DNA of 64,000 bases. Source: Victivallales bacterium (lineage in GTDB: Bacteria; Verrucomicrobiota; Lentisphaeria; Victivallales; GWF2-38-69). The notes below the pieces were generated by a model, which was given only the letters and a program-made list of their open reading frames with translations, had not been told where the DNA came from and made no database searches. The position numbers and the translations under genes are program-made. Below, piece by piece: positions 22,804-38,384 of the stretch. The stretch lies in NCBI GenBank assembly GCA_021733985.1, contig JAIPJT010000004.1:2923-66922 (forward strand), in the 5' to 3' direction. Within the stretch, counting starts at the first letter, position 1; every line of letters starts with the position of its first letter.

Positions 22804-24387
22804 TTATTTTTTGGCTAAGTATTTTTTTGCCTGTTTAATTATATTCGTATCAAGGCCGAGAATTTCGGCTATTTTAAGTGCGTCATAACAGGAAGCCCTG
22901 TTTGTATCATGTTCTATTTCATATTGCATAAAACTGTTAATCAGTTTTATTCTTTCTATGAAATCATAACCCGATTTAGATTTATAGTATTCAGTATACT
23001 TTTTATAATCCAGCCCTTTCATTCGGTAGAAGCACATTTCATCAAACTCAGGAAGATTCATAAAATGTGTTGATAAAAACGCATAGGCTATTTTTCTTGT
23101 GCTGAAATCGTTCAGTATGGCGGTTATAAGCGCTTCTGCCTCATGTGAATTTGTAGTACCCGCAAATTCGTCTATTAGATATAAGGCCTTTTCATTTGTA
23201 ATTCTGCAGGATTGAATAAAAGAAAAAATTTCCATACCGTAACTGCTCAAACCTGAAGAGTGTTCATGGTGAAGGTCTCCTATATAATGGAGGTTTTCAA
23301 AGACAGTGGTTTTATATTCTTTTGCAGGTACAAAGAACCCCATCTGTGTTAATACCTGAAGGAAAGCTATAGTTTTAAGAACAACTGTTTTACCACCCAT
23401 ATTAGAGCCGCTAATTACAATCATACGGTTTTTAAACAATACATTCAGCGGATAATATATAGTTTCCAGTTCAAGACAGTGTTCCATTACCGGTATACTT
23501 CTGCCTTCTTTTACTTCAATATTGCATCCGTATTCCTGTAAAACCGGTTTTTGCATATTATATTTTTCTGCAAGTACGGCTTTAGCTAAAATAACATCAA
23601 ATTTGTGTATTGATTTGATGTAACTTTTAATAAGTTTCAATTCTTTTTTTATTTTTGAAGACAGTTCTGTTATAACATTTTTTTCTTCCTGTTTTTCTTC
23701 TATAACAAGCTCTTCCTTGGTATAGTGCAGAGTAAAGTATTTTTCCGGGAGTACAGGCTTTATCAATACTTTGCTTGAGTCATAGCTTTCCTTATAGATA
23801 TAGTTACTGTCCATGTTTAAGACTTTCGCTTCTTCTATAACAATAAAGTTTTGAAATCTGAAATCCAGATTGAAGTTATTCTTAATATATTCAAGCCGTT
23901 CCCGTTTAAGGTTGAATAACTGTTTATCAAAATGTTTTATCCTGTTTCTTATTTCAGCCAGTTTTTCAGAGTAATTTTCACTTAGATAAAATGTTTCCTT
24001 ATTCCCGTTAAGGTTTAATTTTTTAAATAAACCGGTGGGTCTGAATTTCACAAAAAAGAGCATATATATTTCTTCAGGAAGAATTTCAGATATTTTTTTA
24101 TAGTTAAATAAAAACTTTTTAATTTCAAAGATATTAGTTGCGGTATAGCAATCGTTCTCAAGGAAGTTTAAATGCGGTATTCTTTTTAAATGGTATTCCA
24201 GTGAAGATGTTTTAGCAGTATCGCTTACAAGAAGAGAAATAAATTTTTTAATAAAAGAGTATTCAGTATTTAAATATTCTTCAGATGTAAATAATTCCCG
24301 TTTAGTTTTATCATTTTTTCCGTAAGGTGTAAACGGTGAGTATTTTTGATAAAAAGATTCAAACTCTGCAAAATCAAATATATTCAT
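22804..24387 (-). CDS. kamC: MutS-like ATPase, lysine 5,6-aminomutase reactivase subunit
   Basis: ISGSNMGGKT Walker A, GLSSYGMEI, LIDEFAGTTN, STHF; no mismatch-binding domain; adjacent to kamDE. Confidence 0.8.
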   Translation of the reverse strand: MNIFDFAEFESFYQKYSPFTPYGKNDKTKRELFTSEEYLNTEYSFIKKFISLLVSDTAKTSSLEYHLKRIPHLNFLENDCYTATNIFEIKKFLFNYKKISEILPEEIYMLFFVKFRPTGLFKKLNLNGNKETFYLSENYSEKLAEIRNRIKHFDKQLFNLKRERLEYIKNNFNLDFRFQNFIVIEEAKVLNMDSNYIYKESYDSSKVLIKPVLPEKYFTLHYTKEELVIEEKQEEKNVITELSSKIKKELKLIKSYIKSIHKFDVILAKAVLAEKYNMQKPVLQEYGCNIEVKEGRSIPVMEHCLELETIYYPLNVLFKNRMIVISGSNMGGKTVVLKTIAFLQVLTQMGFFVPAKEYKTTVFENLHYIGDLHHEHSSGLSSYGMEIFSFIQSCRITNEKALYLIDEFAGTTNSHEAEALITAILNDFSTRKIAYAFLSTHFMNLPEFDEMCFYRMKGLDYKKYTEYYKSKSGYDFIERIKLINSFMQYEIEHDTNRASCYDALKIAEILGLDTNIIKQAKKYLAKK

Positions 24388-25237
24388 AAGGATTGAAAAC
24401 AACTTTCTCATTTATACAGTTTTTAGTTAAAGCCTGGTTAAAATCTTCCCTCGTTATGTCAAATAAATTTACAGATATAAAGTTCAAGTGGAATTTTTCT
24501 TTATAATATACTGTTGTCCTTTTCAGCAGATCAGAGAGCTCATTCCAATTTAGAAAAATTTTAGTGAAATCATTAATTAGTATTATATTAAAAGCTTCAG
24601 GTATCTTTGAAGCTTTGATATTTGTAAGCGCTCCTTCACAGACAAAGCATTCTTCTTCTTCAAAATCTTTTTCTTTCTTAACAGGAAATTTTTTTACCAA
24701 ATTTAGTGTTTTGATTTGATTTAATGATTTAATTAAATTTTTCTGTGATACTTTCATAACATAAATGAATTCAGCTTCAGGGGCTGAAGTAATTTGAGTT
24801 ATTCTGTTGACTGCTCCGTCAATAAGATTAGTCTTTATAACTGTTTCTTCTCTTAAATATTTTAAAATAAAATCAAGCTGTGAATTGTTTTCGGGGCCGA
24901 TAAGTTCTATAGAACCTTTCCTGAGGATTCTGATTAACACAAGCCGTCCGAGTTTTGAGATAAAAGGGAATACTTCTACTACTTCAAAAACTGCATCTGT
25001 AACAGTTAATGCATATTCACAAGTTACAATATAATCATTTTTTTCTGCTGTAATACCGGGTTTTGGAGTTCCGAAGATCATATCTTCTTTTTCTCCGTCA
25101 ATGCCGATCGTCATATAACATAATGAATCGGCCTTCTTCCTTATGAGCGGAAGAAGGTAATTCAAAAATGTTGTTTTTCCGGCATTTTTGCTGTTCCCGG
25201 TTATAAAAGTAGTTTTATTGATTATACTATTTATCAT
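24374..25237 (-). CDS. kamB: Lysine 5,6-aminomutase reactivase subunit (P-loop)
   Basis: GNSKNAGKTT, TIGIDGE, LIDGAVNR; position before kamC-kamD-kamE. Confidence 0.75.
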   Translation of the reverse strand: MINSIINKTTFITGNSKNAGKTTFLNYLLPLIRKKADSLCYMTIGIDGEKEDMIFGTPKPGITAEKNDYIVTCEYALTVTDAVFEVVEVFPFISKLGRLVLIRILRKGSIELIGPENNSQLDFILKYLREETVIKTNLIDGAVNRITQITSAPEAEFIYVMKVSQKNLIKSLNQIKTLNLVKKFPVKKEKDFEEEECFVCEGALTNIKASKIPEAFNIILINDFTKIFLNWNELSDLLKRTTVYYKEKFHLNFISVNLFDITREDFNQALTKNCINEKVVFNPYEYI

Positions 25238-25243
25238 GTCTTT

Positions 25244-26446
25244 TCAATTTGCCTGTTTTGTTCTAACATCTATTACTTTTTCATTTTCGGTTTCAAATGT
25301 GATAGAACCATATTTTTTTGTCTCCATACAATAACCTGCTATGAATTCATCGAGGGTAAGTTTCTGACTTTCCAATGGGGGGAAAAGCCCGTTTTGCAAT
25401 GCACATTTTGCACCATGCGGCATGCCGTCAGAACTGAAAATTAAATCTACGCCGGGAATATAGCCAGCCTGGTCAATAAGCATCCTGAACGGATTATTTT
25501 TCTTTAGGCACTCGTCAGTTAATTTACCTTTGAAAAGTATGGATTCTTCCGAGAAGTTTATCTGCATAGAAAGTACTATTCCAAGTTTTTTGCATTTTAA
25601 AGCTACTTCCGGTGATATATACTGAGCATGTTCGATTCTCATACATGGAAGCTTAATGTTTTCCTGTTCTATAATATCTACTAATTGTTCAATTACTATT
25701 TCACCTAAAGCATGTGCCGCGACAGCCTTACCTTCGGATTCGGCAAATTTGAGATCATTTTTAAGTTCCTCATCTGTATAGAGTTTTATTCCACCGTCAA
25801 AGTCGGAGTTTACATACCCGTTAATAGCTGCTGTACCGGGACTTATTGCCCCGTCAAGAAAAATTTTAAAACCGGCTATTTTATCTTTATATTTTTCAGG
25901 CAGAGTTTTATAAGATTTCAGGTCTATCCAGATTTTTACTCTGTGTAAATAACCGGTTTTTTCATATAAATCTATAAAATCTGTGTTGGGTAAAAGCAGA
26001 TCCTGCATTTTGTAAATTTGATTTTCTTTAAGCATGTAATCGAAAAATTCATGAACATCTTTTTCAGTAATTTTTTTAATTTGCGGAATAAATTTAATAA
26101 TCGAGTAAAGGTTATGTTCGATCCATTCAAGATTTTCAATATTATTTACAATTTCCGGAAATTCATCTATTAACTTGTCTTTTGCCTTCTGATTCATTAT
26201 GTAATTGTGAAGGGAACTATCGCATATCAGTACTGCAGGAAGTTCTTTTTCAATTCTGTCTTTTGCTGTATCTCCGAAAGTCCATCCAAGAACAACATTT
26301 ACATCTTCGTCAAGTTCTTTTATTCTGTTTAAAGCTTTTTCCAAATCCTTAACGTTTCTCAGATCGAGACAGTTTCTCAGTGCCAAATAAAAGGAAGTGT
26401 GAGTGTGATGGTCATTAAGCAGCGGAATATTGTGTGTTGTTTTCAT
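25244..26446 (-). CDS. Metal-dependent amidohydrolase (amidohydrolase_3/YtcJ-like)
   Basis: DHHTH, KIFLDGA, AAHALGE, RIEHAQ, FSSDGMP metal ligands. Confidence 0.82.
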   Translation of the reverse strand: MKTTHNIPLLNDHHTHTSFYLALRNCLDLRNVKDLEKALNRIKELDEDVNVVLGWTFGDTAKDRIEKELPAVLICDSSLHNYIMNQKAKDKLIDEFPEIVNNIENLEWIEHNLYSIIKFIPQIKKITEKDVHEFFDYMLKENQIYKMQDLLLPNTDFIDLYEKTGYLHRVKIWIDLKSYKTLPEKYKDKIAGFKIFLDGAISPGTAAINGYVNSDFDGGIKLYTDEELKNDLKFAESEGKAVAAHALGEIVIEQLVDIIEQENIKLPCMRIEHAQYISPEVALKCKKLGIVLSMQINFSEESILFKGKLTDECLKKNNPFRMLIDQAGYIPGVDLIFSSDGMPHGAKCALQNGLFPPLESQKLTLDEFIAGYCMETKKYGSITFETENEKVIDVRTKQAN

Positions 26447-26474
26447 TTTTAACTCCTGTAATATTTAGTTAATA

Positions 26475-27758
26475 TTATTCTTCTTCATGGATTGCCTGAG
26501 GATTGTAGCCTTTTAACTTGTTTACCAGAATCACTAAAATTAAAAAAGCGGTTATTAACAGCATAAATACTGCTCCGGAAATAAAAACAAGTTTAAGCCC
26601 GACAGTTGCTTTGATGTAACTGGAAGCCAATGGAGCGATAACAGTGCCTACTGCTCCGCTTCCTAATACAGCAGTAGTCAGTCTGCTGGTTGCATGAGGA
26701 ACCTGGGTAGTACCTGTAGTAGCAATTGTTGAATATGCTGCTGCAAAGCACATTCCTGTTACTGCGGTAAATAAAAAAGCCCAAATAATACTGATATTCA
26801 ACACGGCCATGAGAAACAGGAGAATACCTGAAAGAGTGCAGATGAAACAGATATAAGTTTCCTGGGAAATTTTTTTTAGTATAAAAGTTGCGGAAAAGCG
26901 GCCGATTATTACAAAACCCCAAAAGGTCGAGATAAGGTAACTGCCGACACTGGCTGTCATTCCTATTTCTTTTTGTCCAAAAATAGGCAGCCAGAATATT
27001 ACAATGGTTTCAGCAATCACATAGAACATTAAAGAAAAACTCATTAAATATACTGTAACAGGCCAGTTAACTAGTTCATCAAGCCATGTCCTGCGGACCT
27101 CCAAATGTTTCGGCCTGGTTTTTTTTGAAGTTGAGACTGAAACTTTTTTGGGCGCTTCAAAGTTTGTAAATAGACAAAGTATAAATGCTAATACTATAAA
27201 AAGAATCACACTTGAAAGTGTTATATTCCAACTGAATTTAAGTTCATCAAGCATATAATTGAAAATTTTAGGAGCAGTAGTTGCACCGATGGCATATACC
27301 AGGGAAACTAATGCCATTTTAGAGGCTCTTTCTTTGTTATCCGTGATATAGATTATCAGATAGTATCCTAAGGAGAAGCACATTCCGTAACCAATTCCGT
27401 ATACAAACAATGCTATGTAAAAAATATGGATATTGGTTGAAATCAGTATTATCCCAATGCCAATAAAAAGTAAAATACTTGTAAGGATATTAGTTGTCTT
27501 AAGTGAAACAAATTCCAGCACAAGGCCTGTTGTGGCAAAAACCATAACTGCACTTGATAATGTAAAAAACGAATAACTTGCTACAGCGCTTGAAACATCC
27601 ACACCTAAAGCTTTGGCTATATCTCCGATCACAACTCCGATTGCCGGAAAACTCGCACCTAAAAAAATCATATAAAGATATGATACATATTCAATTTTTT
27701 TCTTTTCTGTTTTTAGATAACGCATATAGCGCTGTTTCATCGTTTCAGCAGCATACAT
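26475..27758 (-). CDS. MFS transporter (TsgA-like)
   Basis: About 12 hydrophobic helices in 6+6 arrangement, FWGFVIIGRF motif. Confidence 0.85.
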   Translation of the reverse strand: MYAAETMKQRYMRYLKTEKKKIEYVSYLYMIFLGASFPAIGVVIGDIAKALGVDVSSAVASYSFFTLSSAVMVFATTGLVLEFVSLKTTNILTSILLFIGIGIILISTNIHIFYIALFVYGIGYGMCFSLGYYLIIYITDNKERASKMALVSLVYAIGATTAPKIFNYMLDELKFSWNITLSSVILFIVLAFILCLFTNFEAPKKVSVSTSKKTRPKHLEVRRTWLDELVNWPVTVYLMSFSLMFYVIAETIVIFWLPIFGQKEIGMTASVGSYLISTFWGFVIIGRFSATFILKKISQETYICFICTLSGILLFLMAVLNISIIWAFLFTAVTGMCFAAAYSTIATTGTTQVPHATSRLTTAVLGSGAVGTVIAPLASSYIKATVGLKLVFISGAVFMLLITAFLILVILVNKLKGYNPQAIHEEE

Positions 27759-27792
27759 AAACTCCCCCCTTTTATTTTTAATTAAACATAGT

Positions 27793-27826
27793 AACAGATT
27801 CAGCGTAAACCTACGCTGGATCTGTT
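27793..27826 (-). terminator. Intra-operon stem-loop between kdd and the MFS gene
   Basis: AACAGATTCAGCGTA-AACC-TACGCTGGATCTGTT, 15-bp stem with weak U tract. Confidence 0.6.
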
Positions 27827-27835
27827 TTAAACAAA

Positions 27836-28873
27836 TTAAACATATAATTGTTTGTAGAGCTCTCTGATTCGGGTGCTTTCACGGATGATATTAATAGCTA
27901 TATTTGCGTGATTATAAGCATAACCGTTTCCTACAATCATATCAATATCTTTGCCTACACCTTCAGCGCCCAGGGCTGCTTTAGTAAAAGATGTGGCCAT
28001 GCTGAAAAAATATACAGTTCCTCTGTCCTTTGTCATGAGAATTGAACCCATTTCTGTATTCTGTATGTTTACATTATTTATAACTACATCGCAGAGCTTT
28101 CCATTTGTTGCAGCCATAGCTTTTTCATAGCAGCTGATAGCGTCAGTTGCGTCAAGCTTTATGACCTCGTCACATAGTTCCAAACTTTTCAGGAGTTTAA
28201 GGTTTTCATCTGAGTAGTCCATGCCTATGATTTTACCGTTGGGACCGGCGGCTTTTTTAGCGGCATAAGCGCAGAGAATGCCTGATTTTCCTGCAGCACC
28301 GATAATTGCAACTGTATTGTCTTTTTTGACAAGCCTTTCTGTCTGGGCCGGTGCCCCGGCTACATCTAATACAGCCAAAGCAAGTGAAGGTGGAATATCA
28401 TCAGGAAGCTTTGCATATATAGCTGATTCAAATAGTATTGCCTGTCCTTTAATTACAACCTGGTCAATGTTCTTTTTTACTTCCACAATTTCATCTATTT
28501 TTAATGGAGTCAGTGACAAGGATACCAGGCTTGCAATTCTGTCTCCCTCTTTGACTGAAACTTTAGATTTTATTTTATCTCCGATTGCATCTATATTCCC
28601 AATAAACATGCCGCCTGAACCGGTCACGGGATTTTTAAGTTTGCCGTTTCTCTTTACTAAATCCAGGATGATTTCCTTGATTTTTTCACTATCCCCGCCT
28701 GCTTGTTCTTTTATCTGTGTAAAACTTGCAGAGTCCACATTTAAAATATCAACATTGACACGTATTTCGTTGTCAAATAGCTCCATGTCATTTGAAATTT
28801 TTAAAGCTGGCTGAGGCAGTACTCTGGCCGGCTCGATTACTCTGTGGATTCCGTATGGGTTCCCTTGTTTCAT
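27836..28873 (-). CDS. kdd: L-erythro-3,5-diaminohexanoate dehydrogenase
   Basis: GNPYGIHRVIEP, LNVDSASF, NPVTGSGGM, LDVAGAPAQ, FFSMATSF; start at RBS-supported ATG 28873. Confidence 0.95.
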   Translation of the reverse strand: MKQGNPYGIHRVIEPARVLPQPALKISNDMELFDNEIRVNVDILNVDSASFTQIKEQAGGDSEKIKEIILDLVKRNGKLKNPVTGSGGMFIGNIDAIGDKIKSKVSVKEGDRIASLVSLSLTPLKIDEIVEVKKNIDQVVIKGQAILFESAIYAKLPDDIPPSLALAVLDVAGAPAQTERLVKKDNTVAIIGAAGKSGILCAYAAKKAAGPNGKIIGMDYSDENLKLLKSLELCDEVIKLDATDAISCYEKAMAATNGKLCDVVINNVNIQNTEMGSILMTKDRGTVYFFSMATSFTKAALGAEGVGKDIDMIVGNGYAYNHANIAINIIRESTRIRELYKQLYV

Positions 28874-28895
28874 GTTACCTGTTCCTTTGTTTGTT

Positions 28896-29714
28896 TTAAT
28901 TTTTAAGTTTAAACATTTCTCTGACATCTGCGGGCGTTGCAACAGAATATCCTGCGGCTTTGGATATTTTTGCAGCTCGTTCTACAAGCTGAGCATTGCT
29001 TTCGGCTAAAATACCTTTATCGAAATATATATTGTCTTCAAAGCCTACGCGCATAAAACCGCCAAGAGCAAGAGCTCCGTAATGGGCTTCAAGTGCTGCT
29101 TTGCCGCCAATGCCTATTACTGTCCAGCAAGTGCTTTCCGGCAGTCTCCTTACAAAAAAGCCAAGAGTTTCGACATCATATTTTGCCGCACCAGGGACAT
29201 TTAAAACAAAACTGTAATGGTAAGGCGGTTCTATGAGTCCTTCTTTAACAAGGAGATTTGCAGAATAAACATGGGACAAGTCAAAACATTCGAGAGTAGG
29301 TTTAACATTCTGTCTTTTCATTTCTTTAGCAAATTGCCGCATAATAGGCAAAGTATTGACAATATATTCATTTCCGAAATTCACTGTTCCGCAGTCAAGA
29401 GATGCCATTTCTGGTTTCAGTGAAACAACTTCAAGTCTTTCCTCGGGTGACATACCTACACCGCCGCCGGTTGTGACTTCAATGACTATATCACATTTTT
29501 TTCTAATAAGTTCAACTGCTTTTTGGAAAATATTAATATCCATCGTTGCTCTGCCGTCTTTGTCTCTGACATGCAAGTGGCAGATAGAAGCTCCCTTAAG
29601 ATATGAATTATAAGTACTTTCTGCTATTTCTTCGGGAGTAACAGGCAGGTTCGGATTATCTTTTTTGGATGTTTCGGCACCGCAGACAGCCACAGTAATG
29701 ACCATTTTTTTCAT
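28896..29714 (-). CDS. kce: 3-keto-5-aminohexanoate cleavage enzyme
   Basis: ITVAVCGAE, HLHVR, TTGG, RVGFEDN (BKACE/DUF849); operon context. Confidence 0.93.
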   Translation of the reverse strand: MKKMVITVAVCGAETSKKDNPNLPVTPEEIAESTYNSYLKGASICHLHVRDKDGRATMDINIFQKAVELIRKKCDIVIEVTTGGGVGMSPEERLEVVSLKPEMASLDCGTVNFGNEYIVNTLPIMRQFAKEMKRQNVKPTLECFDLSHVYSANLLVKEGLIEPPYHYSFVLNVPGAAKYDVETLGFFVRRLPESTCWTVIGIGGKAALEAHYGALALGGFMRVGFEDNIYFDKGILAESNAQLVERAAKISKAAGYSVATPADVREMFKLKN

Positions 29715-29749
29715 AGTTAAATTTCTCCTGTATTTTATGATTCCCGTTA

Positions 29750-30403
29750 TTATTTAATATCTATAGTTTTTATATCGTCAGGAACAAGAAATTCTGCATC
29801 TGTTGCTTTTTTGATATCATCTATTGTTGTATCCGGAGCGATTTCTTCTAAAACCATTCCTTTATTAGTTATCTTAAAAACACCCATTTCGGTTATAATG
29901 TCAGTAACTTTTCCTGCAGCTGTTAACGGCAGGGAACATTTTTTCATTATTTTAGGATTCCCTTTTTGAGTGTGCAGCATTGCGACTATAACTCTCTTTG
30001 CGCCGGAAACAAGGTCCATAGCCCCACCCATTCCGGGAACCATTTTGCCGGGTATTTTCCAATTGGCAATATCGCCGCTTTGGCTTACCTGTAATGCGCC
30101 GAGAATTGTGACATCTACATGTCCGCCGCGGATAATACCAAAAGAAGTAGCCGAATCGAAATACATTGCACCCGGGTTTGCAGTAACAGGCTGTCCTCCT
30201 GCATTTGTAAGCCTGAGATCTTCATTACCTTTTTCAGGAGCAGGTCCCAGTCCCATAATTCCGTTCTCTGACTGAAAAGTAATATCCTGGCCACTTTCTA
30301 TATAATTTGCCACCATGGTAGGAAGGCCTATGCCGAGGTTAACTACATTGCCGTCATTAAGCTCTTTTGCGGCTCGTTTAGCGATTAATACTTTAGGATT
30401 CAT
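29750..30403 (-). CDS. atoA: 3-oxoacid (acetoacetate) CoA-transferase subunit B
   Basis: VNLGIGLPT, QSENG catalytic Glu, GMGGAMDLV. Confidence 0.9.
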   Translation of the reverse strand: MNPKVLIAKRAAKELNDGNVVNLGIGLPTMVANYIESGQDITFQSENGIMGLGPAPEKGNEDLRLTNAGGQPVTANPGAMYFDSATSFGIIRGGHVDVTILGALQVSQSGDIANWKIPGKMVPGMGGAMDLVSGAKRVIVAMLHTQKGNPKIMKKCSLPLTAAGKVTDIITEMGVFKITNKGMVLEEIAPDTTIDDIKKATDAEFLVPDDIKTIDIK

Positions 30404-30404
30404 A

Positions 30405-31085
30405 TTACAGTTTTCCTCCATCAACTATATAATCAACAAAGATATGAGAAGTTACTACATTGTCGGGGTCAATCTCGCCGACTTCAACGATTTTTGCTGC
30501 TTCAACAATTACTCTGTCACAAGCCATTGCCATTAGCGGATTAAAGTTTCTTTCAGTTTTGCTGTAGCAGATATTGCCTTTTCTGTCTACAATAGCACCT
30601 TTTATCAGAGCGACATCTCCTCTCATAGGCTTTTCCAGGAGGTAGGTCTTTCTGTCAACAACAATTTTTTGCTTATCTTTTTCCACTTCTGTTTTTAGTC
30701 CTGTCGGTGTTAAAATACCTCCAAGCCCGAAACCAGCGGCTCTGATTTGTTCGGCGAGTGTGCCTTGCGGAACTAAAGTTACTTTAGCTTCTCCGGTATT
30801 CATCTGTTTACCGGTTTCCTTATTTGTCCCAATGTGGGTTGATATAAGATGTGAAATCTGTTTATTGACTATTAATTTGCCTATACCGGCTTTAATATTA
30901 CCGATATCTTCTGCGAAGCCTGAGTCATTACATATTACTGTAAGATTTTCAACTTTTTTATTACATAGTTCATCAATAAGCCTGTGCGGTGCACCGCAGG
31001 ATAAAAAACCGCCTATCATTAGAGTGTCGCCTTCTCTTATGAGGTCGGCGGCGATTTCTGCTGTAATAATTTTACTTTTACTCAT
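30405..31085 (-). CDS. atoD: 3-oxoacid (acetoacetate) CoA-transferase subunit A
   Basis: MIGGF, PQGTLAEQIRAAG, RNFNPLMA. Confidence 0.9.
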   Translation of the reverse strand: MSKSKIITAEIAADLIREGDTLMIGGFLSCGAPHRLIDELCNKKVENLTVICNDSGFAEDIGNIKAGIGKLIVNKQISHLISTHIGTNKETGKQMNTGEAKVTLVPQGTLAEQIRAAGFGLGGILTPTGLKTEVEKDKQKIVVDRKTYLLEKPMRGDVALIKGAIVDRKGNICYSKTERNFNPLMAMACDRVIVEAAKIVEVGEIDPDNVVTSHIFVDYIVDGGKL

Positions 31086-31151
31086 TTCTATTTCCTGTTT
31101 TAGCAAATATAAAATATTAAAAATGACGTTTCCTGTTAACCGATTTAAACT

Positions 31152-32399
31152 TTAGCAGTATTTTTCTTCTAAAGCTTTAAAGGTTTCATCGATTGACTTT
31201 AAGGTGTATTTTAAGTCTTTATCTGTATGTCGATAACAAACATACCAGTGGTGATAAGGCTGCAGGAATACATTTTTTCTAATCATTTCAGTATAGAATT
31301 CTTTCCTGATCGCTTTATATGATCCATCTTCATTCTTTGGAAAAGTGATAAAGAACATCGGCGGAATTCCTGTCAGATCTGCATCAATTTTACTTTCAAC
31401 GAGAATTTTTTTAATGCCGTTCATCAAGTATTCGCCCTTTTTCCATATTGTTTCAAGAATATCATTATTTTCGAGTAGTTCTATTGTTTTAAGAGCAGCA
31501 ACATGGCTTATACTGTTGGGGAAGAATGTAGAAGATATGAATACATTTTTGACTGCTTCTTTCATGAATTCTTTTTTTCCGGCTACAGCTCCTATCGGGT
31601 AACCGTTAGCCATAGCTTTGCCGAAAACAGCCATATCAGGTGTTACCCCGTAATATTTCTGTGCACCCCCAAGCGTGACTCTGAAACCGGTTCTTATCTC
31701 GTCAAAAATAACTACAGCGCCATACCTATGTGCAAGTTCCTTAACACTTTCCAGATATCCGGGTTTGGGAGCTTCCATAGGTTTTGCAGTCGGATGCGCA
31801 AAAGGGGTGATAATAACCGCTGCTGTATTGTTCTCATGTTCTTTCAGTAAACTTTCGAGATTTTCAAGATCATTATAATGAAATTCGTGAATATCTTCAT
31901 AAACTTTTTTAGGGACTCCGCCTTTTACTTCTACGCACCAGTTATGCCACCCGTGATATCCGCATCTTAATACTTTTGTCTTCTGTGTATAGGATCGGGC
32001 TATTCTTATTGCGCTTGTTGTTGCATCTGAGCCGGTTGTTACAAAAAGGCTCATTTCTGCGCAGGGAATGTGTTCACGCATTTTTACAGCCAAATCATTC
32101 TGAAATTTCTGAGTTAAGGAAAAACAAAATCCTTTTTCTCTTATTTGTTTAATAACGGCTTCATCGATTTCTTCTTCTCTGTATCCTAAAAGTATCGGGC
32201 CGTATGCACAAAGGTAATCAATATATTCATTACCGTCAATATCTTCTATTCTGCCGCCTTTAGCTTTGTCAAAATAAATAGGATATTCACCTTCTACAAA
32301 GTTATAAGGCCTTCTAATCCCGAGTACACCGCCGGGGATATTTTCTTTGCCTCTTTCGTATTCATTGAGTGAATTGGTGAGATTCAGCTTTTCTGTCAT
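31152..32399 (-). CDS. kat: Class III aminotransferase, probable 3-aminobutyryl-CoA aminotransferase
   Basis: PGGVLGIRRPYNFVEGEYP, FDEIRTGFR, FGKAMANG, SSTFFPNS, QPYHH resemble the Cloacamonas Kat as recalled; first gene of a lysine operon lacking kal. Confidence 0.82.
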   Translation of the reverse strand: MTEKLNLTNSLNEYERGKENIPGGVLGIRRPYNFVEGEYPIYFDKAKGGRIEDIDGNEYIDYLCAYGPILLGYREEEIDEAVIKQIREKGFCFSLTQKFQNDLAVKMREHIPCAEMSLFVTTGSDATTSAIRIARSYTQKTKVLRCGYHGWHNWCVEVKGGVPKKVYEDIHEFHYNDLENLESLLKEHENNTAAVIITPFAHPTAKPMEAPKPGYLESVKELAHRYGAVVIFDEIRTGFRVTLGGAQKYYGVTPDMAVFGKAMANGYPIGAVAGKKEFMKEAVKNVFISSTFFPNSISHVAALKTIELLENNDILETIWKKGEYLMNGIKKILVESKIDADLTGIPPMFFITFPKNEDGSYKAIRKEFYTEMIRKNVFLQPYHHWYVCYRHTDKDLKYTLKSIDETFKALEEKYC

Positions 32400-32607
32400 A
32401 ATTAACTCCTAATGTTATTTTTTATCCAAAAACTGATATTTGTGAGCCTCTGAAAAATAATGATATCATTGTATATTTTCATTACAATAAAAAAAATAAT
32501 TTACTATTGAAAATAAAAAAAATATATAACTAAAAGTCAAACAAATAATTGACTTATAAATTAATTAATATTTATTTGAATAAAAAAGATAAATAAAGGA
32601 AGGTGAA

Positions 32608-34173
32608 ATGTTACTATACTATAAAAAATTAAGATCACTAAGAAAAGCCACAGGCTTACAGACCAAAGTGTTTTGTGAACGCATAGGTGTTTCAGTTTCA
32701 ACTTTGTGGCACTGGGAGAAAGGCAGTAAAACGCCATCAGAGAAAAGAGTTAGAAAATTAGCGAAAGTTTTATGCGTATCGGTTGATGAAATATCGGATC
32801 TGACTCCTGAATACAAAAAATCAGATCAGGATCTGTCTGAGATAATCAATATCTGGCGTGACAATTCGGGTTTGAGTATGAAGGAATCGGAAGCCGAGTT
32901 TAATATACTTATAAATAAATTAATTAGGCAGCATAAAAACCTGATTCAGCATTCCTTAATAACAAAAGCAATACTTTCATCTATTAATTCAATTATATAT
33001 ATTAAAGACATCAATCAAAAATATTTAGTTGCCAATGATGCTTTTATTGAATTATTGGGATTGATTAATGGTTACAGGGTTGACGGAAAAACAGATTTTG
33101 ATTTTTATAATAGTACAGAAGCTAAAGAGATTATTAATCAGGACAATCAGGTTCTTTCTACTGGTAAGCCCATAACAAATTTAAACAGTTTTATGCCCGG
33201 TACAAAAAAGAAGAGACATGCATTAATTTCAAAGTTTCCAATTCTTGATTCAGAGAATAAAATTGTAGGACTTATTGGGACTTACAATGATATTACAGAA
33301 ATGAAAAAGGCGGGAAGAGTAAGAGAGATACTTGAAATATATGTGGGGGCGATGACAGACTGCTTATCTGTTTTTTTCAGTCACAATTATAAGTACATAT
33401 TTGTAAATAATGCTTATGCAGATATTTTCGGATATCCTGTAGAAAAATTTTATGAGGGTGGACTGATTGATTTTTTTGCTGAAAAATGTGTTCATCCTGA
33501 TGACAGGGAACAAGAAAAAAAATATTTAAAGGAAAAAAACTGGCCTAAACAACGTATTTACAGGATTATTAAACCGAACGGTGATGTCAGGTGGCTGGAA
33601 GGAAGTGTGAACAGAAGAAAATATTTTGGTAAGGAATGCTGTATTTCAGTTAACCGTGATATAACAGAAAGAGTTTACGAATCTGCCTTTAGCGACCTGT
33701 TCGGGCTTATACTGGAACATTCTGATGATGTCCTGTGGATTAGAGATAAAACAGAAAATGAAGGGTTGGTTTTTGTATCAGTTTCTGTCAGAAAACTTTA
33801 TGGTCATTCAGAAGATATTTTTTACAAAGATTCATTTTTTTGGTTAAATAAATGTCTTTATTCAAAAGATAAAACTGTATGGTTATTAAACGAAGAAAAC
33901 AGTTCTCTCCGGGACTATAAAAAGGAATACAGGATATATGATTCTAAACAGCAGCTTAAGTGGATAGAATTAACATGCTTCGAATACAAATTTTTAGGTA
34001 AAGAGTGTTATTGTTATCTTGAAAAAAATATTACTGATAAAAAGGCTGTGGAAAAGTCAAAGGAAAATGAAAGCCTAAGAAAGGTTGCGAAAAAACTAAG
34101 AAAAATGGATTTTAATACAGATTTAATTTCCGAGATAACAGAATTAAGTAGAAAACAAATTGAAGTTTTATAG
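32608..34173 (+). CDS. XRE-family HTH + three PAS domains regulator with Rpn-like C-terminal tail (paralogue 3)
   Basis: HTH (VSVSTLWHWE), PAS repeats (IYIKD, VHPDDRE, DITE), tail VAKKLRKMDFNTDLISEITELSRKQIEVL. Confidence 0.82.
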   Translation: MLLYYKKLRSLRKATGLQTKVFCERIGVSVSTLWHWEKGSKTPSEKRVRKLAKVLCVSVDEISDLTPEYKKSDQDLSEIINIWRDNSGLSMKESEAEFNILINKLIRQHKNLIQHSLITKAILSSINSIIYIKDINQKYLVANDAFIELLGLINGYRVDGKTDFDFYNSTEAKEIINQDNQVLSTGKPITNLNSFMPGTKKKRHALISKFPILDSENKIVGLIGTYNDITEMKKAGRVREILEIYVGAMTDCLSVFFSHNYKYIFVNNAYADIFGYPVEKFYEGGLIDFFAEKCVHPDDREQEKKYLKEKNWPKQRIYRIIKPNGDVRWLEGSVNRRKYFGKECCISVNRDITERVYESAFSDLFGLILEHSDDVLWIRDKTENEGLVFVSVSVRKLYGHSEDIFYKDSFFWLNKCLYSKDKTVWLLNEENSSLRDYKKEYRIYDSKQQLKWIELTCFEYKFLGKECYCYLEKNITDKKAVEKSKENESLRKVAKKLRKMDFNTDLISEITELSRKQIEVL

Positions 34174-34223
34174 TTTTATAAGTTTACCGAATAACTTTTT
34201 TATAAAGGGAATTTAAAATATCT

Positions 34224-34616
34224 ATGAATAATAATAAAAAATATATTTACAAAGAGGGGTTTAATTTTAATTTTGATAATTCCGCCTGTGAACATTGCGG
34301 AGGAAAATGCTGTTCCGGAGAGAGCGGTTATATCTGGATAACTCAGGCGGAAATAAAAAAAACAGCTGAATATTTAGATGTTAAATTAAATACTTTTTTT
34401 ACAGAATATTTAAGATTTAAAAATGGTAGTTATACTATAAAAGATATTAAGTACGGTGGTTATTATTCCTGCCTCTTTTTTGATAGAGAAGAAAATAAAT
34501 GTCTAATATATCCGGTTAGACCTTTACAGTGTAGAACATACCCGTTCTGGGAAATGTATATGGGAGATTCTGAAGAATTATTTGATGATTGTCCAGGTGT
34601 AAAAAAGCTTCCATGA
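34224..34616 (+). CDS. YkgJ family cysteine-cluster protein
   Basis: CEHCGGKCC, CLFFD...CLIYPVRPLQCRTYPFW, CPG. Confidence 0.9.
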   Translation: MNNNKKYIYKEGFNFNFDNSACEHCGGKCCSGESGYIWITQAEIKKTAEYLDVKLNTFFTEYLRFKNGSYTIKDIKYGGYYSCLFFDREENKCLIYPVRPLQCRTYPFWEMYMGDSEELFDDCPGVKKLP

Positions 34617-34641
34617 AACAGGGTGCATGCACCCTGTTTTT
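34616..34641. terminator. Bidirectional intrinsic terminator between ykgJ-like gene and kamA
   Basis: Perfect palindrome AAACAGGGTGCATGCACCCTGTTT plus T-run. Confidence 0.8.
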
Positions 34642-34685
34642 GTTTCAGAAAAGATTAAACTTCGCTGAACGAAGAACAGCATTAA

Positions 34686-35933
34686 CTATCTCCTGTTCAA
34701 ATTCTGTATATTTTCCTCGAGCAGGGTTGCCACTCCTTCTGATGGAGTAAAAAATTTATATGTGTTTTTACAGATATTACATCTTCCGCAGTCTGAAGAG
34801 GTATCTGATGGCTGAGTATATACTGTTATTGTACCTTCATAGTTACGCAGTATGAGTTTTTTATCAGATCTCGAAATTACATAGTTGGGCATTACCGGTA
34901 TTTTACCACCTCCGCCTGGTGCATCTACAACGTAAGTCGGAACAGCCATTCCGGAAGTATGGCCTCTTAAATTTTCGATTATTTCAATACCTTTTCCTAC
35001 GGAAGTTCTGAAATGACTTATTCCTGTAGATAGATCACATTGATATATATAGTACGGTTTTACTCTTATTTTCAAAAGTTCATGCATTAACTCTTTCATA
35101 ATAAAAGGACAGTCGTTTACATCACGCAGCAGTACGGTTTGATTGCCCACAGGGACCCCGTTCTCAGTAAGTTTGTCGCAGGCGATTTTTGCTTCTTCTG
35201 TTATTTCGTCCGGATGATTAAAGTGAGTATTGAAGAAAATAGGCTGATATTTTTTTATAATATTTACAAGGTTGTCTGTTATTCTCTGCGGCATAACTAC
35301 AGGAGTTCTGCTTCCAATTCTGATGATTTCGACATGATTAATATTTCTTAAAGTTTCCAGAATATACTCAATCCTGCTATCCGGTAATGTTAAAGGATCA
35401 CCTCCGGAAACAATTACATCCCTGATCTGCTTATTTTTTTTAATATAATTTACAGCATCCAAAAAACATTCCTTATTAAAACCGCTTTCATCACAACCTA
35501 CAACTCTGCGGCGAGTACAGTGTCTGCAGTACATAGAGCATTTTCTTGTAACAAGGAGGAGAACTCTGTCAGGGTATCGATGAGTTAAACCTGGTACAGG
35601 TGAATCTATATCTTCATGGAGTGGGTCAGAAATATCCGAATCATCTTTAATTAGTTCCTGTATTCTTGGGACAGCCTGTAATCTGATGGGGCATCTAATA
35701 TAATTTTCATCGATGAGTGCGGCGTAATAGGGGGTAATTGCCATTTTGAATTTTTTTAAACTTATGGCCAGCTGTTCTTTTTCCTTTTCATCAATTGTAA
35801 TGATCTTTGAAAGAGACGAAATGTCTTTAATTGTGTTATTTAACTGCCATTTCCAGTCATTCCAGTCTTCGTCTTTTACATCCTTAAATATCGGAATATG
35901 CTTGTGGAGTACTTTTCTGTAGATCTTCTTCAT
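34686..35933 (-). CDS. kamA: L-lysine 2,3-aminomutase (radical SAM, PLP)
   Basis: WNDWKWQL, LTHRYPDR, CSMYCRHCTRRR, SGGDPL, DAPGGGGKIP. Confidence 0.96.
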   Translation of the reverse strand: MKKIYRKVLHKHIPIFKDVKDEDWNDWKWQLNNTIKDISSLSKIITIDEKEKEQLAISLKKFKMAITPYYAALIDENYIRCPIRLQAVPRIQELIKDDSDISDPLHEDIDSPVPGLTHRYPDRVLLLVTRKCSMYCRHCTRRRVVGCDESGFNKECFLDAVNYIKKNKQIRDVIVSGGDPLTLPDSRIEYILETLRNINHVEIIRIGSRTPVVMPQRITDNLVNIIKKYQPIFFNTHFNHPDEITEEAKIACDKLTENGVPVGNQTVLLRDVNDCPFIMKELMHELLKIRVKPYYIYQCDLSTGISHFRTSVGKGIEIIENLRGHTSGMAVPTYVVDAPGGGGKIPVMPNYVISRSDKKLILRNYEGTITVYTQPSDTSSDCGRCNICKNTYKFFTPSEGVATLLEENIQNLNRR

Positions 35934-36205
35934 GGTAATGTTTTCTCCCCCAAATTATTTTATTTAAAATGATAAAAACCCGAATAATATAGCTCGGTTC
36001 AGAAAATTAAACAGCCAAGAAGTAAAATAATATTTTATATTTTATATTTTTCCAGTTTTTTTGTATGAATCGATTGTTCTTTTTTTAATAGAGATTTATA
36101 ATATAAGCTGTAACAATTAATATGAATTGTAATTATTTAACAGTTAACTAATAGAGTTACTGTTCTTATTATGTTTAATTTACCATTATCGAAAGGGAAG
36201 TAACA

Positions 36206-37636
36206 ATGCCTGATATTGGCACTATATTTAGAGTAGGAGAAACTTTAAAACGAGCTATTCAGGCAGACGCTGTATTCAGACAGTCTGACCAGGAACATGT
36301 AGATAGAATTGTCAGATCTGTATACAGAACTGTAATGAATAATAGAATTAAGTTTGCTAAAATGGCCGTAGAAGAGACTGGACTTGGACGCTGGGAGGAT
36401 AAAGTCTTAAAGACTGTAGTCGCATCCCAGTTTGTTTACGAATATATCAAAGATAGAAAAACTGTCGGAGTTGTTTCTGACGATGTAGAGAAAGGGATAA
36501 CTGAAATAGCTCACCCTATAGGAACGGTTCTCGGAATAGTATCAAAGACGGATCCCATTGCTTCAGCAGTTTTTAAGATAATTATAGCAATGAAAACAAG
36601 AAACCCTATAATTATTGCTTCTGACCCAAAAGCCGTTAAGACTACAGAAGCTGTTTGTGATTTATGTTATGAAGCAGCATTAAAGGAAGATGCTCCCGAA
36701 GACTGTATTCAGTGTTTTTATGATACTTCAACAGATGAGTTTGAAAACTTAATAGCGGACAAACGTTTGAACCTGATTATTGCTGCCGGAGACGGAGCAG
36801 TAAAAGAAAATAATAATGTTAAAGCACCTGTAATTGGAAGCGGCAGCGGCAATGTTCCCGTTTACATTGCCGAAGACATTGACCCTGATTTTGTTGCTAA
36901 GCAAATTATCGATTCAAAAGTTTTTGACCAGGGTGTAATGAATTCAAGCGAACAGGCTGTTGTAATAAACAAAAATATTACAAAACAGTTTAAAACTGCA
37001 ATAGAGAAAAAGGGCGGACATTTTGTAACAGAAAAAGAAAAGAAAATGTTAATCGATTATGTTCTGGAAAAAGGAGATAAGGTAAATAAAGATATAACAG
37101 GCCAAAGTCCACAGATTATTGCAGCAAACTCAGGCTTCAAAGTACCTGAAACTACAAAATTATTAATTGTACCTCTGAAAGGTGTGGGAAGTGAATATCC
37201 GCTCTCGGAGAAAGTGCTCGCACCTTTAATAGCGTTTTACGAAGTAGAAGATTTTCATGAGGCTATTAATGTTTGTATCGATTTGAATTATTATGAAGGT
37301 ATTGGTCATACAGTATGCATTTATTCTAATGACCATGATAAAATAAAGAAATTTGCTATGGAGATGAATGCCGGGCGAGTTATTGTAAACAGCCCTAGTT
37401 CAATGGGTGCTGTTGGTGGAATATACAATCTTCTGCCTCCATCTTTTTCATTGGCATGCGGAGCTGTTGGGAAGACTATAACTATGGATAATGTTTCCAT
37501 AAAGCATCTTATAAATTTACAGAGAATCTCGAGAAGAAGAATAAATCAGAGGTTACGGGATTTTGACAGGAAGATGTACATTGATGAAAGTAAAAATATA
37601 GATGAAATAGAGAGGTTGTTTAATAAAAACTATTAA
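36206..37636 (+). CDS. CoA-acylating aldehyde dehydrogenase (AdhE N-domain) homologue lacking the catalytic Cys
   Basis: AVEETGLG, KTRNPII, LSEKVLAP, GHT, PSFSLACG; the usual FDNGxICASEQ reads FDQGVMNSSEQ. Confidence 0.85.
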   Translation: MPDIGTIFRVGETLKRAIQADAVFRQSDQEHVDRIVRSVYRTVMNNRIKFAKMAVEETGLGRWEDKVLKTVVASQFVYEYIKDRKTVGVVSDDVEKGITEIAHPIGTVLGIVSKTDPIASAVFKIIIAMKTRNPIIIASDPKAVKTTEAVCDLCYEAALKEDAPEDCIQCFYDTSTDEFENLIADKRLNLIIAAGDGAVKENNNVKAPVIGSGSGNVPVYIAEDIDPDFVAKQIIDSKVFDQGVMNSSEQAVVINKNITKQFKTAIEKKGGHFVTEKEKKMLIDYVLEKGDKVNKDITGQSPQIIAANSGFKVPETTKLLIVPLKGVGSEYPLSEKVLAPLIAFYEVEDFHEAINVCIDLNYYEGIGHTVCIYSNDHDKIKKFAMEMNAGRVIVNSPSSMGAVGGIYNLLPPSFSLACGAVGKTITMDNVSIKHLINLQRISRRRINQRLRDFDRKMYIDESKNIDEIERLFNKNY

Positions 37637-37666
37637 TATTTTATATAGAATATATGAGGAGGAAAC

Positions 37667-37960
37667 ATGGCTGTTACTTTAAATCGTAATGATGGGACAG
37701 TAAATTTTGTTTTTGAAGGCAGAATGGACACAATAAAATGTATGTCGGCAGAGAAAGATGTAGTAGAAAATATTAATGAGAATGACCAGGTAGTATTCGA
37801 CCTCAAAGAGGTTGATTATATTGCATCTTCTTTTCTAAGATTATGCGGTAGAGCATCGAATACTGTTGGTGTGGAAAATTTTTCTGTTATAAATGTATCT
37901 CCCTCTGTTAAAAAAGTATTTAAAATAGCCGGCCTTGCCAACAGATTAAATATCAAATAA
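37667..37960 (+). CDS. STAS-domain anti-sigma factor antagonist
   Basis: GRMD, DLKEVDYIASSFLR (phospho-Ser motif), VFKIAGL. Confidence 0.9.
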   Translation: MAVTLNRNDGTVNFVFEGRMDTIKCMSAEKDVVENINENDQVVFDLKEVDYIASSFLRLCGRASNTVGVENFSVINVSPSVKKVFKIAGLANRLNIK

Positions 37961-37976
37961 TTGCCTTTAAAATTAA

Positions 37977-38384
37977 ATGAAAAGAATAAAGAAAAAGGCA
38001 ACATTCGAGAATTTAGAGGAAGTCCTGCAATTTGTGAAGGTCGGTGCAAAAGCGTTTGGTTTTGACAAAGCTGCTATTGCCGATCTAATTCTTGCCGTTG
38101 AAGAGGTTTTGGTCAATATTATTAGCTATGCCTATACAGATCAGTGTAAAAGTGGATACATGGAAGTAAGATATAAAAATAATAATAGTTCTTATTCAAT
38201 AACTTTTCTTGATACCGGCAAAAAATTTGATCCTACTGCAGTAAGTGAGCCAGATACCTCAATTCCTATTAACCAAAGAAGGATGGGGGGAATGGGAATA
38301 CACATTGTAAGAAATATTGTCGATAATCTTCAATATAAAAGGGAAGGCGGTAAGAATATTTTCACTATTGAGAAGAAAAAATAA
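37977..38384 (+). CDS. RsbW-like anti-sigma factor / Ser kinase (HATPase_c)
   Basis: LAVEEVLVNIISYAY, DTGKKFDP, GGMGIHIV. Confidence 0.9.
   Translation: MKRIKKKATFENLEEVLQFVKVGAKAFGFDKAAIADLILAVEEVLVNIISYAYTDQCKSGYMEVRYKNNNSSYSITFLDTGKKFDPTAVSEPDTSIPINQRRMGGMGIHIVRNIVDNLQYKREGGKNIFTIEKKK

Follow-up and report, generated by a model that had tools for sequence, protein, structure and literature searches.

The targets of the partner switches known so far are sigma factors, diguanylate cyclases or a glycosyltransferase. Enzyme-directed examples are SiaC-SiaD, HsbA-HsbD and BgrV-BgrR, according to the excerpted text of one account (PMC8457831), and Anabaena All4160/HenR/Alr3423, according to that of a preprint (bioRxiv 10.64898/2026.04.08.717354). 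The excerpt of a review of STAS-only proteins names both sigma-linked and unknown targets (PMC8256260). Dead aldehyde dehydrogenases (ALDHs) are also known, in excerpts of two further accounts, as human ALDH16A1 (PMC8160307) and as the second AldDH of GRM1 loci (PMC4207490). Here we analyze a locus in which the gene of an acetylating ALDH without its catalytic Cys is followed by a STAS gene and an RsbW-type kinase gene. It lies in a stretch of 64,000 nucleotides from a Victivallales bacterium (contig JAIPJT010000004.1), called the window hereafter; the genome of the window is G000 (95.9% complete). The ALDH-STAS module, extended in some loci by RsbW and PP2C or by a fusion of STAS to acetate-CoA ligase (Acs), is apparently undescribed so far: no description of an ALDH-STAS or STAS-Acs module was found in full-text searches of the main text of openly accessible papers.

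The window ALDH combines an intact fold with a depleted active site

Alignment of the window ALDH to solved acylating ALDHs (5j78 and 3k9d) and to AdhE placed N246 at the position of the catalytic Cys. This bore out the sequence-only reading of the locus, which had pointed to the AAT codon at 36941, and the alignment equally confirmed two changes that it had listed within the intact 476-aa frame, TNPTS to TDPIA and ATGG to AAGD. An additional loss, absent from that reading, is K336 in place of the Glu of the EKL motif. H368 and N216 are retained. We take the D116 site to be that of the oxyanion Asn, ATGG to be the cofactor loop, the K336 site to be that of a cofactor-binding Glu, and H368, in the motif GHT, to be the His general base.

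The AlphaFold2 (AF2) model has the complete three-domain fold of acylating ALDHs (pLDDT 91.5, pTM 0.91) and matched 5j7i in Foldseek with a TM of 0.89. The helix after AAGD is mostly unwound (DSSP; pLDDT 73-76 at 191-220), unlike in the model of a Cys-keeping member, where it is present at 197-205. The C-terminal tail is confidently predicted as three helices (448-472, pLDDT 90-95). The best NCBIfam matches, AdhE (457.8 bits) and EutH_ACDH (396.4 bits), both fall under their cut-offs, and the protein is not an AdhE, which at ~870 aa carries a C-terminal iron-dependent alcohol dehydrogenase (Fe-ADH) and has a PRK13805 cut-off of 951. The window ALDH is very probably a pseudoenzyme, and it likely neither catalyses nor binds NAD or CoA.

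Loss of the catalytic Cys is shared by relatives and has recurred

The sequence-only reading had proposed an alignment of orthologues and a dN/dS analysis. Among the 120 best homologues, the catalytic Cys was kept in 111 and replaced by N, S, G or Q in 9, the window protein included; the oxyanion position held N in 111/120, D in 8/120 and S in 1/120. The five closest homologues (66-71% identity) are all full-length and all Cys-less. They belong with the window ALDH to a group A that also includes P0007, a distant P0152 and a dead copy (P0095, at locus L031) from G003, a genome labelled Victivallales and of the same family as that of the window. Group-A frames are full-length at 48-82% pairwise identity and have gained a conserved N-terminal motif. 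Leaving out P0076, which has an unrelated C-terminus, group A has K336 in 8/8, D116 in 7/8, H368 in 7/8 and N216 in 8/8, whereas at the K336 position 95% or more of the 180 rows with Cys have Glu. P0076 itself joins the N-terminal 365 aa of a group-A ALDH to an esterase-like C-terminus and is probably a chimeric assembly. The group is small: a profile search retrieved no further close members, and none of the 4 family loci from a metagenome scan was a Cys-less group-A gene.

Sequencing error was rejected as a source of the Cys loss, since homologues are Cys-less too and the sequence recurs unchanged in a second sample of lake water from the same study (a contig of run X3 spans 36072-37656 with 0 differences from the window; run X1, possibly the source of the window itself, was not counted). 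Strain-specific decay was rejected as well, because the loss is common to relatives.

Two other dead types were found. Group B consists of L103, L106 and L107 (Kiritimatiellae/Verrucomicrobiota labels) and is also without the His and N216; the third type is L093 (Vulcanimicrobiota label). The ATGG loop is lost in A, B and L093, differently in each. At L093:5821-7479, an insertion of ~20 residues directly before the cofactor loop resembles a local duplication. A 42-row tree placed A and B apart, as did a 207-row FastTree. Approximately unbiased (AU) tests, run on trees from a quick search with long branches, rejected A and B as one clade (p=0.0036) and A, B and L093 as one clade (p=0.0098). Independent loss of the Cys thus occurred at least twice (AU p=0.004), and a third such loss is likely. 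The G003 dead copy stands far apart in the tree from its live neighbour and was rejected as a recent tandem duplicate of it.

dN/dS was 0.15-0.22 in 3 group-B pairs, compared with 0.03-0.19 in 9/10 live pairs (one pair was saturated); the window ALDH against the G003 dead copy gave 0.24, near saturation. Identity of group A to live members was 0.43 in the Rossmann domain, compared with 0.72 between live members; for the catalytic domain the corresponding values were 0.45 and 0.60, for the N-terminal helices 0.56 and 0.60, and for the tail 0.42 and 0.39. Group B retains less, with a tail identity of 0.33 to live members. The dead copies keep the C-terminal tail and a conserved oligomerisation hairpin and strand. 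The proposal of a pseudoenzyme was therefore upheld: relatives at 48-71% identity share the Cys loss, the fold is intact and the second dead lineage is under purifying selection, which argues against decay.

All 5/5 dead genes with downstream DNA keep STAS. RsbW is retained in the window and at L093, the latter also having a phosphatase, and a STAS-Acs gene follows the dead ALDH at both L103 and L107. A substitute for the dead ALDH was present in every case examined: 3/3 group-B genomes (G352-G354) encode AdhE, G351 encodes a distant acylating ALDH, G003 has two live copies, and G000 has AOR with Fe-ADH.

STAS genes pair with a whole subfamily of tailed ALDHs

The Cys-keeping relatives are stand-alone proteins of ~477 aa, not AdhE, and share the three-helix tail, which is missing from the AdhE rows. 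In total, 98 distinct family genes were gathered together with their DNA; the sources were 41 relatives, 351 class genomes, GTDB (66 loci) and metagenomes (4 loci). Of these genes, 89 had 400 nt or more of downstream sequence, and STAS came next in 86/89, one of them as a fusion. STAS does not come next in L042, in L079 and at the live G003 copy, where the dead copy lies between the live ALDH and STAS. By their record labels, ALDH-STAS loci come from Lentisphaeria, Omnitrophota, Bacteroidota, Planctomycetota, Hydrogenedentota, Armatimonadota, Acidobacteriota, Cloacimonadota and others. Among comparison genes with long flanks, neither the two for AdhE nor the two for tail-less ALDHs had such a STAS downstream; in ten further AdhE loci the flank was only ~300 nt. 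A STAS of at least 88 bits was present in 34/34 class genomes with a stand-alone ALDH and in 4/317 others. This comparison is partly circular, as the profile was built from these STAS, and it scored no more than 4 ALDH candidates in each genome.

The cognate STAS proteins have an invariant Ser (87/87), followed by FLRxC. In the window STAS this Ser, S54, aligns with the first Ser of the SpoIIAA DSS, in the phospho-site region; the protein scored 33.9 bits against TIGR00377 (cut-off 53.45) and has the motif ASSFL, not DSxGL. STAS lies behind ALDH in two natural fusions (L064 and P0122). It also stands in front of a full acetate-CoA ligase (TIGR02188 over cut-off), beside ALDH in L031, L092, L099, L103, L107 and L108, and additionally in L112 and L183; this suggests enzymes as targets of the switch, where the sequence-only reading had seen an input. 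L183 further encodes a STAS-GPP34 fusion. In an AF2 model of the L064 fusion (pTM 0.76, only 12 ALDH rows) both domains fold, with low confidence in their relative placement. Mutual information over 83 paired ALDH-STAS rows did not rise above 8 re-paired controls (top z 6.5 vs 5.8-6.7), and a word-index search, a weak method, retrieved no longer STAS fusions at E<=0.001.

These observations place the ALDH-STAS pairing with the whole tailed subfamily and not with the dead copy alone. The linkage to STAS and RsbW that the sequence-only reading had noted is thus much stronger than it had supposed, but it is not peculiar to Cys-less genes, being tied to a subfamily of which 111/120 top members keep the Cys. 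Direct binding of STAS to the ALDH is rather probable.

Variation around this pair was also recorded. Around one live ALDH of G001 (L039:4499-7076) there are three dedicated STAS copies, one with D for A before the Ser. The order pssA-ALDH-STAS-RsbW-PP2C of G003 (L037) is split in G004 and G008 (L042, L043, L180, L181), where the ALDH has moved beside gapA and STAS-RsbW was left behind pssA. FLR-type STAS paralogues independent of ALDH (G000:C35:43202-43513, L164-L179) lie beside tyrS, GH130 and response regulators. In L040 and L044, tandem fusions (740-760 aa) of a sodium:dicarboxylate symporter to a family-3 solute-binding domain adjoin ALDH-STAS.

Kinase and phosphatase genes accompany part of the family

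Among 64 ALDH genes in loci of at least 8 kb, an RsbW-type kinase was nearby in 21 and a SpoIIE phosphatase in 21 (mostly Cache/HAMP sensors), with either in 26 and both in 16. A stand-alone RsbW directly follows STAS in 14/87 pairs. After ALDH-STAS, six loci (L060, L075, L078, L092, L100 and L108) have an NMT1/THI5-like solute-binding protein and a Cache-HAMP-SpoIIE protein, some with a kinase; these genes are candidates for the signal input. A search of the family loci with the two sigma proteins of G000 gave no match (sigma-54 was not searched for), so that of the parts of a sigma-directed switch the RsbW-type kinase and SpoIIE/PP2C are present and a cognate alternative sigma was not found.

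G000 encodes 5 SpoIIE proteins, none in the window operon, and 2 RsbW. Most of one SpoIIE (C35:23625) aligns with phosphatases encoded in the operons of relatives, at ~31% identity. The two sigma70_r2 matches of this genome are long primary-like proteins, and its sigma70_r4_2 matches look like a regulator of the LuxR type and a small helix-turn-helix (HTH) protein. Its overall inventory is two sigma70-family proteins, five SpoIIE, two RsbW and at least three STAS.

Organization of the window locus

The open reading frame map of the window agreed with the gene arrangement given earlier, with gaps of 30 bp between ALDH and STAS and 16 bp between STAS and RsbW, and with kamA divergent (Table 1). 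The window RsbW has ATP-binding boxes in common with the RsbW genes of related loci. A promoter scan was uninformative (20 sites vs 12.0 +/- 3.8).

Table 1. Genes and residues of the window locus
Feature	Position	Strand	Basis
Tailed acetylating ALDH, Cys-less, predicted pseudoenzyme, 476 aa	36206..37636	+	Pfam Aldedh
N246 at catalytic Cys position, codon AAT	36941..36943	+	alignment to solved acylating ALDHs
D116 at oxyanion-hole Asn, TNP to TDP	36551..36553	+	homologue alignment
AAGD (193-196) in place of ATGG cofactor loop	36782..36793	+	alignment, AF2 model
K336 in place of conserved Glu, EKL/EIL motif	37211..37213	+	alignment
Subfamily-specific tail at the C-terminus (448-476), predicted as three helices, candidate surface for STAS docking	37547..37633	+	pLDDT 90-95
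Dedicated STAS protein, YxxSxFLRxC type, 97 aa	37667..37960	+	Pfam STAS
STAS S54, predicted phospho-acceptor	37826..37828	+	invariant Ser in cognate STAS
RsbW/SpoIIAB-type Ser kinase, 135 aa	37977..38384	+	HATPase_c_2 82 bits, over cut-off
kamA, divergent from ALDH	34686-35933	-	ORF map

The kamA gene belongs to a lysine-fermentation cluster (22804-35933, minus strand) with kdd, kce, CoA-transferase subunits, a kamB-like gene, a gene for a reactivase partner resembling MutS, and genes for an aminotransferase and an MFS transporter. Among the related loci compared, kamA adjoins a family ALDH in the window alone, and a functional kamA-ALDH link was rejected on this ground. A second kamA (G000:C2:18359) is 71% identical to that of the window. 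Fusions of an XRE-type HTH to several PAS domains are encoded at window 32608-34173 (+), G000:C2:13028, C36:19153 and L043:6097-7557; each of the G000 paralogues adjoins a catabolic operon (the kamA copies and AOR-ADH).

Discussion

From the gene order, fusions, residue losses and selection described above, we propose a scheme of phosphorylation, binding, direction and output. The RsbW kinase would phosphorylate STAS at S54, and membrane Cache/HAMP-SpoIIE phosphatases would reverse this upon outside signals. One phospho-state of STAS would dock on the ALDH tail and N-terminal helices; docked STAS would gate acetaldehyde/acetyl-CoA flux in Cys-keeping relatives, and fused STAS would do likewise on Acs. 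Once the chemistry is provided by another enzyme, catalytic activity and cofactor binding would decay while the docking surface remains, and the dead protein would then set the amount of STAS free for the kinase and other targets. In the reading that we favour, the dead ALDH may well be such a STAS-binding scaffold or sink, part of a sigma-independent switch over acetyl-CoA-forming enzymes. A fuller version is possible, if on balance doubtful: a sigma-free switch across many anaerobic phyla would set two-carbon (C2) flux through STAS on ALDH and Acs, the ALDH would itself take part in signalling, and the pseudoenzyme, split off at least twice for this non-catalytic role, would hold or release STAS, in group A by means of a rebuilt small-molecule pocket.

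The sequence-only reading had proposed a sensor or a scaffold. As a sensor, the dead ALDH would recognize a metabolite (aldehyde, carboxylate or acyl-CoA), release or hold STAS and feed the kinase cascade. Group A does keep H368 (7/8) and N216 (8/8), its new fixed charges K336 and D116 could form a rebuilt pocket, it has gained the N-terminal motif, and the dead gene heads a kinase cassette in L093 and in the window. For acyl-CoA or NAD(H), this idea is disfavoured: none of the three dead groups has kept an intact nucleotide pocket, the loop being lost differently in each, and divergence has affected the cofactor and catalytic domains while sparing the tail. The unwound cofactor helix of the AF2 model, the absence of the His and N216 from group B and that of K336 from P0152 further count against a sensor, which we consider unlikely. 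Quite unlikely, too, is a regulatory subunit that would hetero-oligomerise with an active ALDH or AdhE and bring STAS control to it. The oligomerisation elements of the dead ALDH are conserved, G003 (L031) has a dead copy next to a live one, a dead copy neighbours AdhE in L103 and L106, and GRM1 microcompartment loci also contain a dead second AldDH (excerpt of PMC4207490), but G000 offers no other AdhE-type ALDH as a partner and G351 only a distant one.

Long branches, raised dN/dS and small clades would fit a relic that decays slowly as the first gene of an otherwise useful STAS-RsbW operon, and STAS-RsbW blocks do persist without ALDH. Set against this are the full-length frames of group A despite their divergence, group-B dN/dS values far under 1, and tails and STAS kept through independent losses; a relic is therefore very unlikely. 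Least probable of all, to our judgement, is that STAS and RsbW control a housekeeping-type sigma as a classical anti-sigma pair and that the ALDH is no more than co-transcribed. The kinase and the phospho-Ser are intact, the chlamydial system controls sigma-66 (excerpt of PMC8256260) and G000 has two primary-like sigmas. Such a pair would leave the STAS fusions to ALDH and Acs, the FLRxC type and the 86/89 adjacency unexplained.

Several observations also weigh against the scaffold or sink. Selection on the dead copies is weaker than in most live pairs. Gene context is available for only 2 group-A members (G000 and G003), the 7 to 8 others being protein-only, and a search of G000 found neither Acs nor a second AdhE-type ALDH. 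Neither kinase nor phosphatase is nearby in 38/64 of the long loci, and an ECF (extracytoplasmic function) sigma or sigma-54 may still be the target. Furthermore, L042 and L079 keep the Cys without an adjoining STAS, STAS-RsbW(-PP2C) blocks occur without ALDH (L180, L181), and further STAS-type paralogues lie beside unrelated genes.

If the proposed switch exists, it would represent a new post-translational control of acetate/ethanol metabolism in many uncultured anaerobes. A control point for C2 units entering acetyl-CoA has a bearing on digesters, sediments and ethanol engineering, and the repeated, selected loss of catalysis with STAS kept would be a natural experiment that parts chemistry from signalling. 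The dead genes are mis-annotated as active acetaldehyde/alcohol dehydrogenases, and such annotations call for caution.

Comparison with known systems

The window ALDH shares the fold (TM 0.89), 35-40% identity and the His base with acetylating ALDHs (Geobacillus AcAldDH 5j78/5j7i, Listeria 3k9d; TIGR02518) and with the ALDH half of AdhE (PRK13805). It differs from them in lacking the Cys, the oxyanion Asn, ATGG, the cofactor Glu and an ADH domain, in having a three-helix tail and a dedicated STAS, and in scoring below both cut-offs.

The excerpted accounts of ALDH16A1 and the GRM1 dead AldDH likewise describe loss of the catalytic Cys and propose a scaffold or binding role. These texts carry no STAS or kinase link, and the term STAS has no match in PMC4207490. 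As described there, the GRM1 dead AldDH accompanies a live copy in a microcompartment locus, whereas the neighbours of the window ALDH are kamA, STAS, RsbW and a pyrH-like gene; no live AdhE-type copy was found in G000, where shell genes were not searched for genome-wide.

With RsbV/RsbW/RsbU and SpoIIAA/SpoIIAB/SpoIIE of Bacillus and the Chlamydia Rsb system, the module has in common the STAS Ser, a GHKL kinase and SpoIIE, the last in related loci and in G000. Unlike these, its STAS reads SxFLRxC instead of DSxGL and is tied to metabolic enzymes, with no sigma found in the loci. In the SiaC-SiaD and All4160 type, by the excerpted accounts, STAS is free or fused and its phospho-state controls an enzyme and not a sigma factor, as is proposed here. 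The targets reported there are diguanylate cyclases or a glycosyltransferase, whereas the window type pairs with acetyl-CoA-forming enzymes. By analogy, the module would work like the SiaC-SiaD, HsbA-HsbD, BgrV-BgrR and All4160 switches while being a member of none, and, unlike in those enzyme-directed switches, one partner enzyme has here repeatedly turned into a probable pseudoenzyme.

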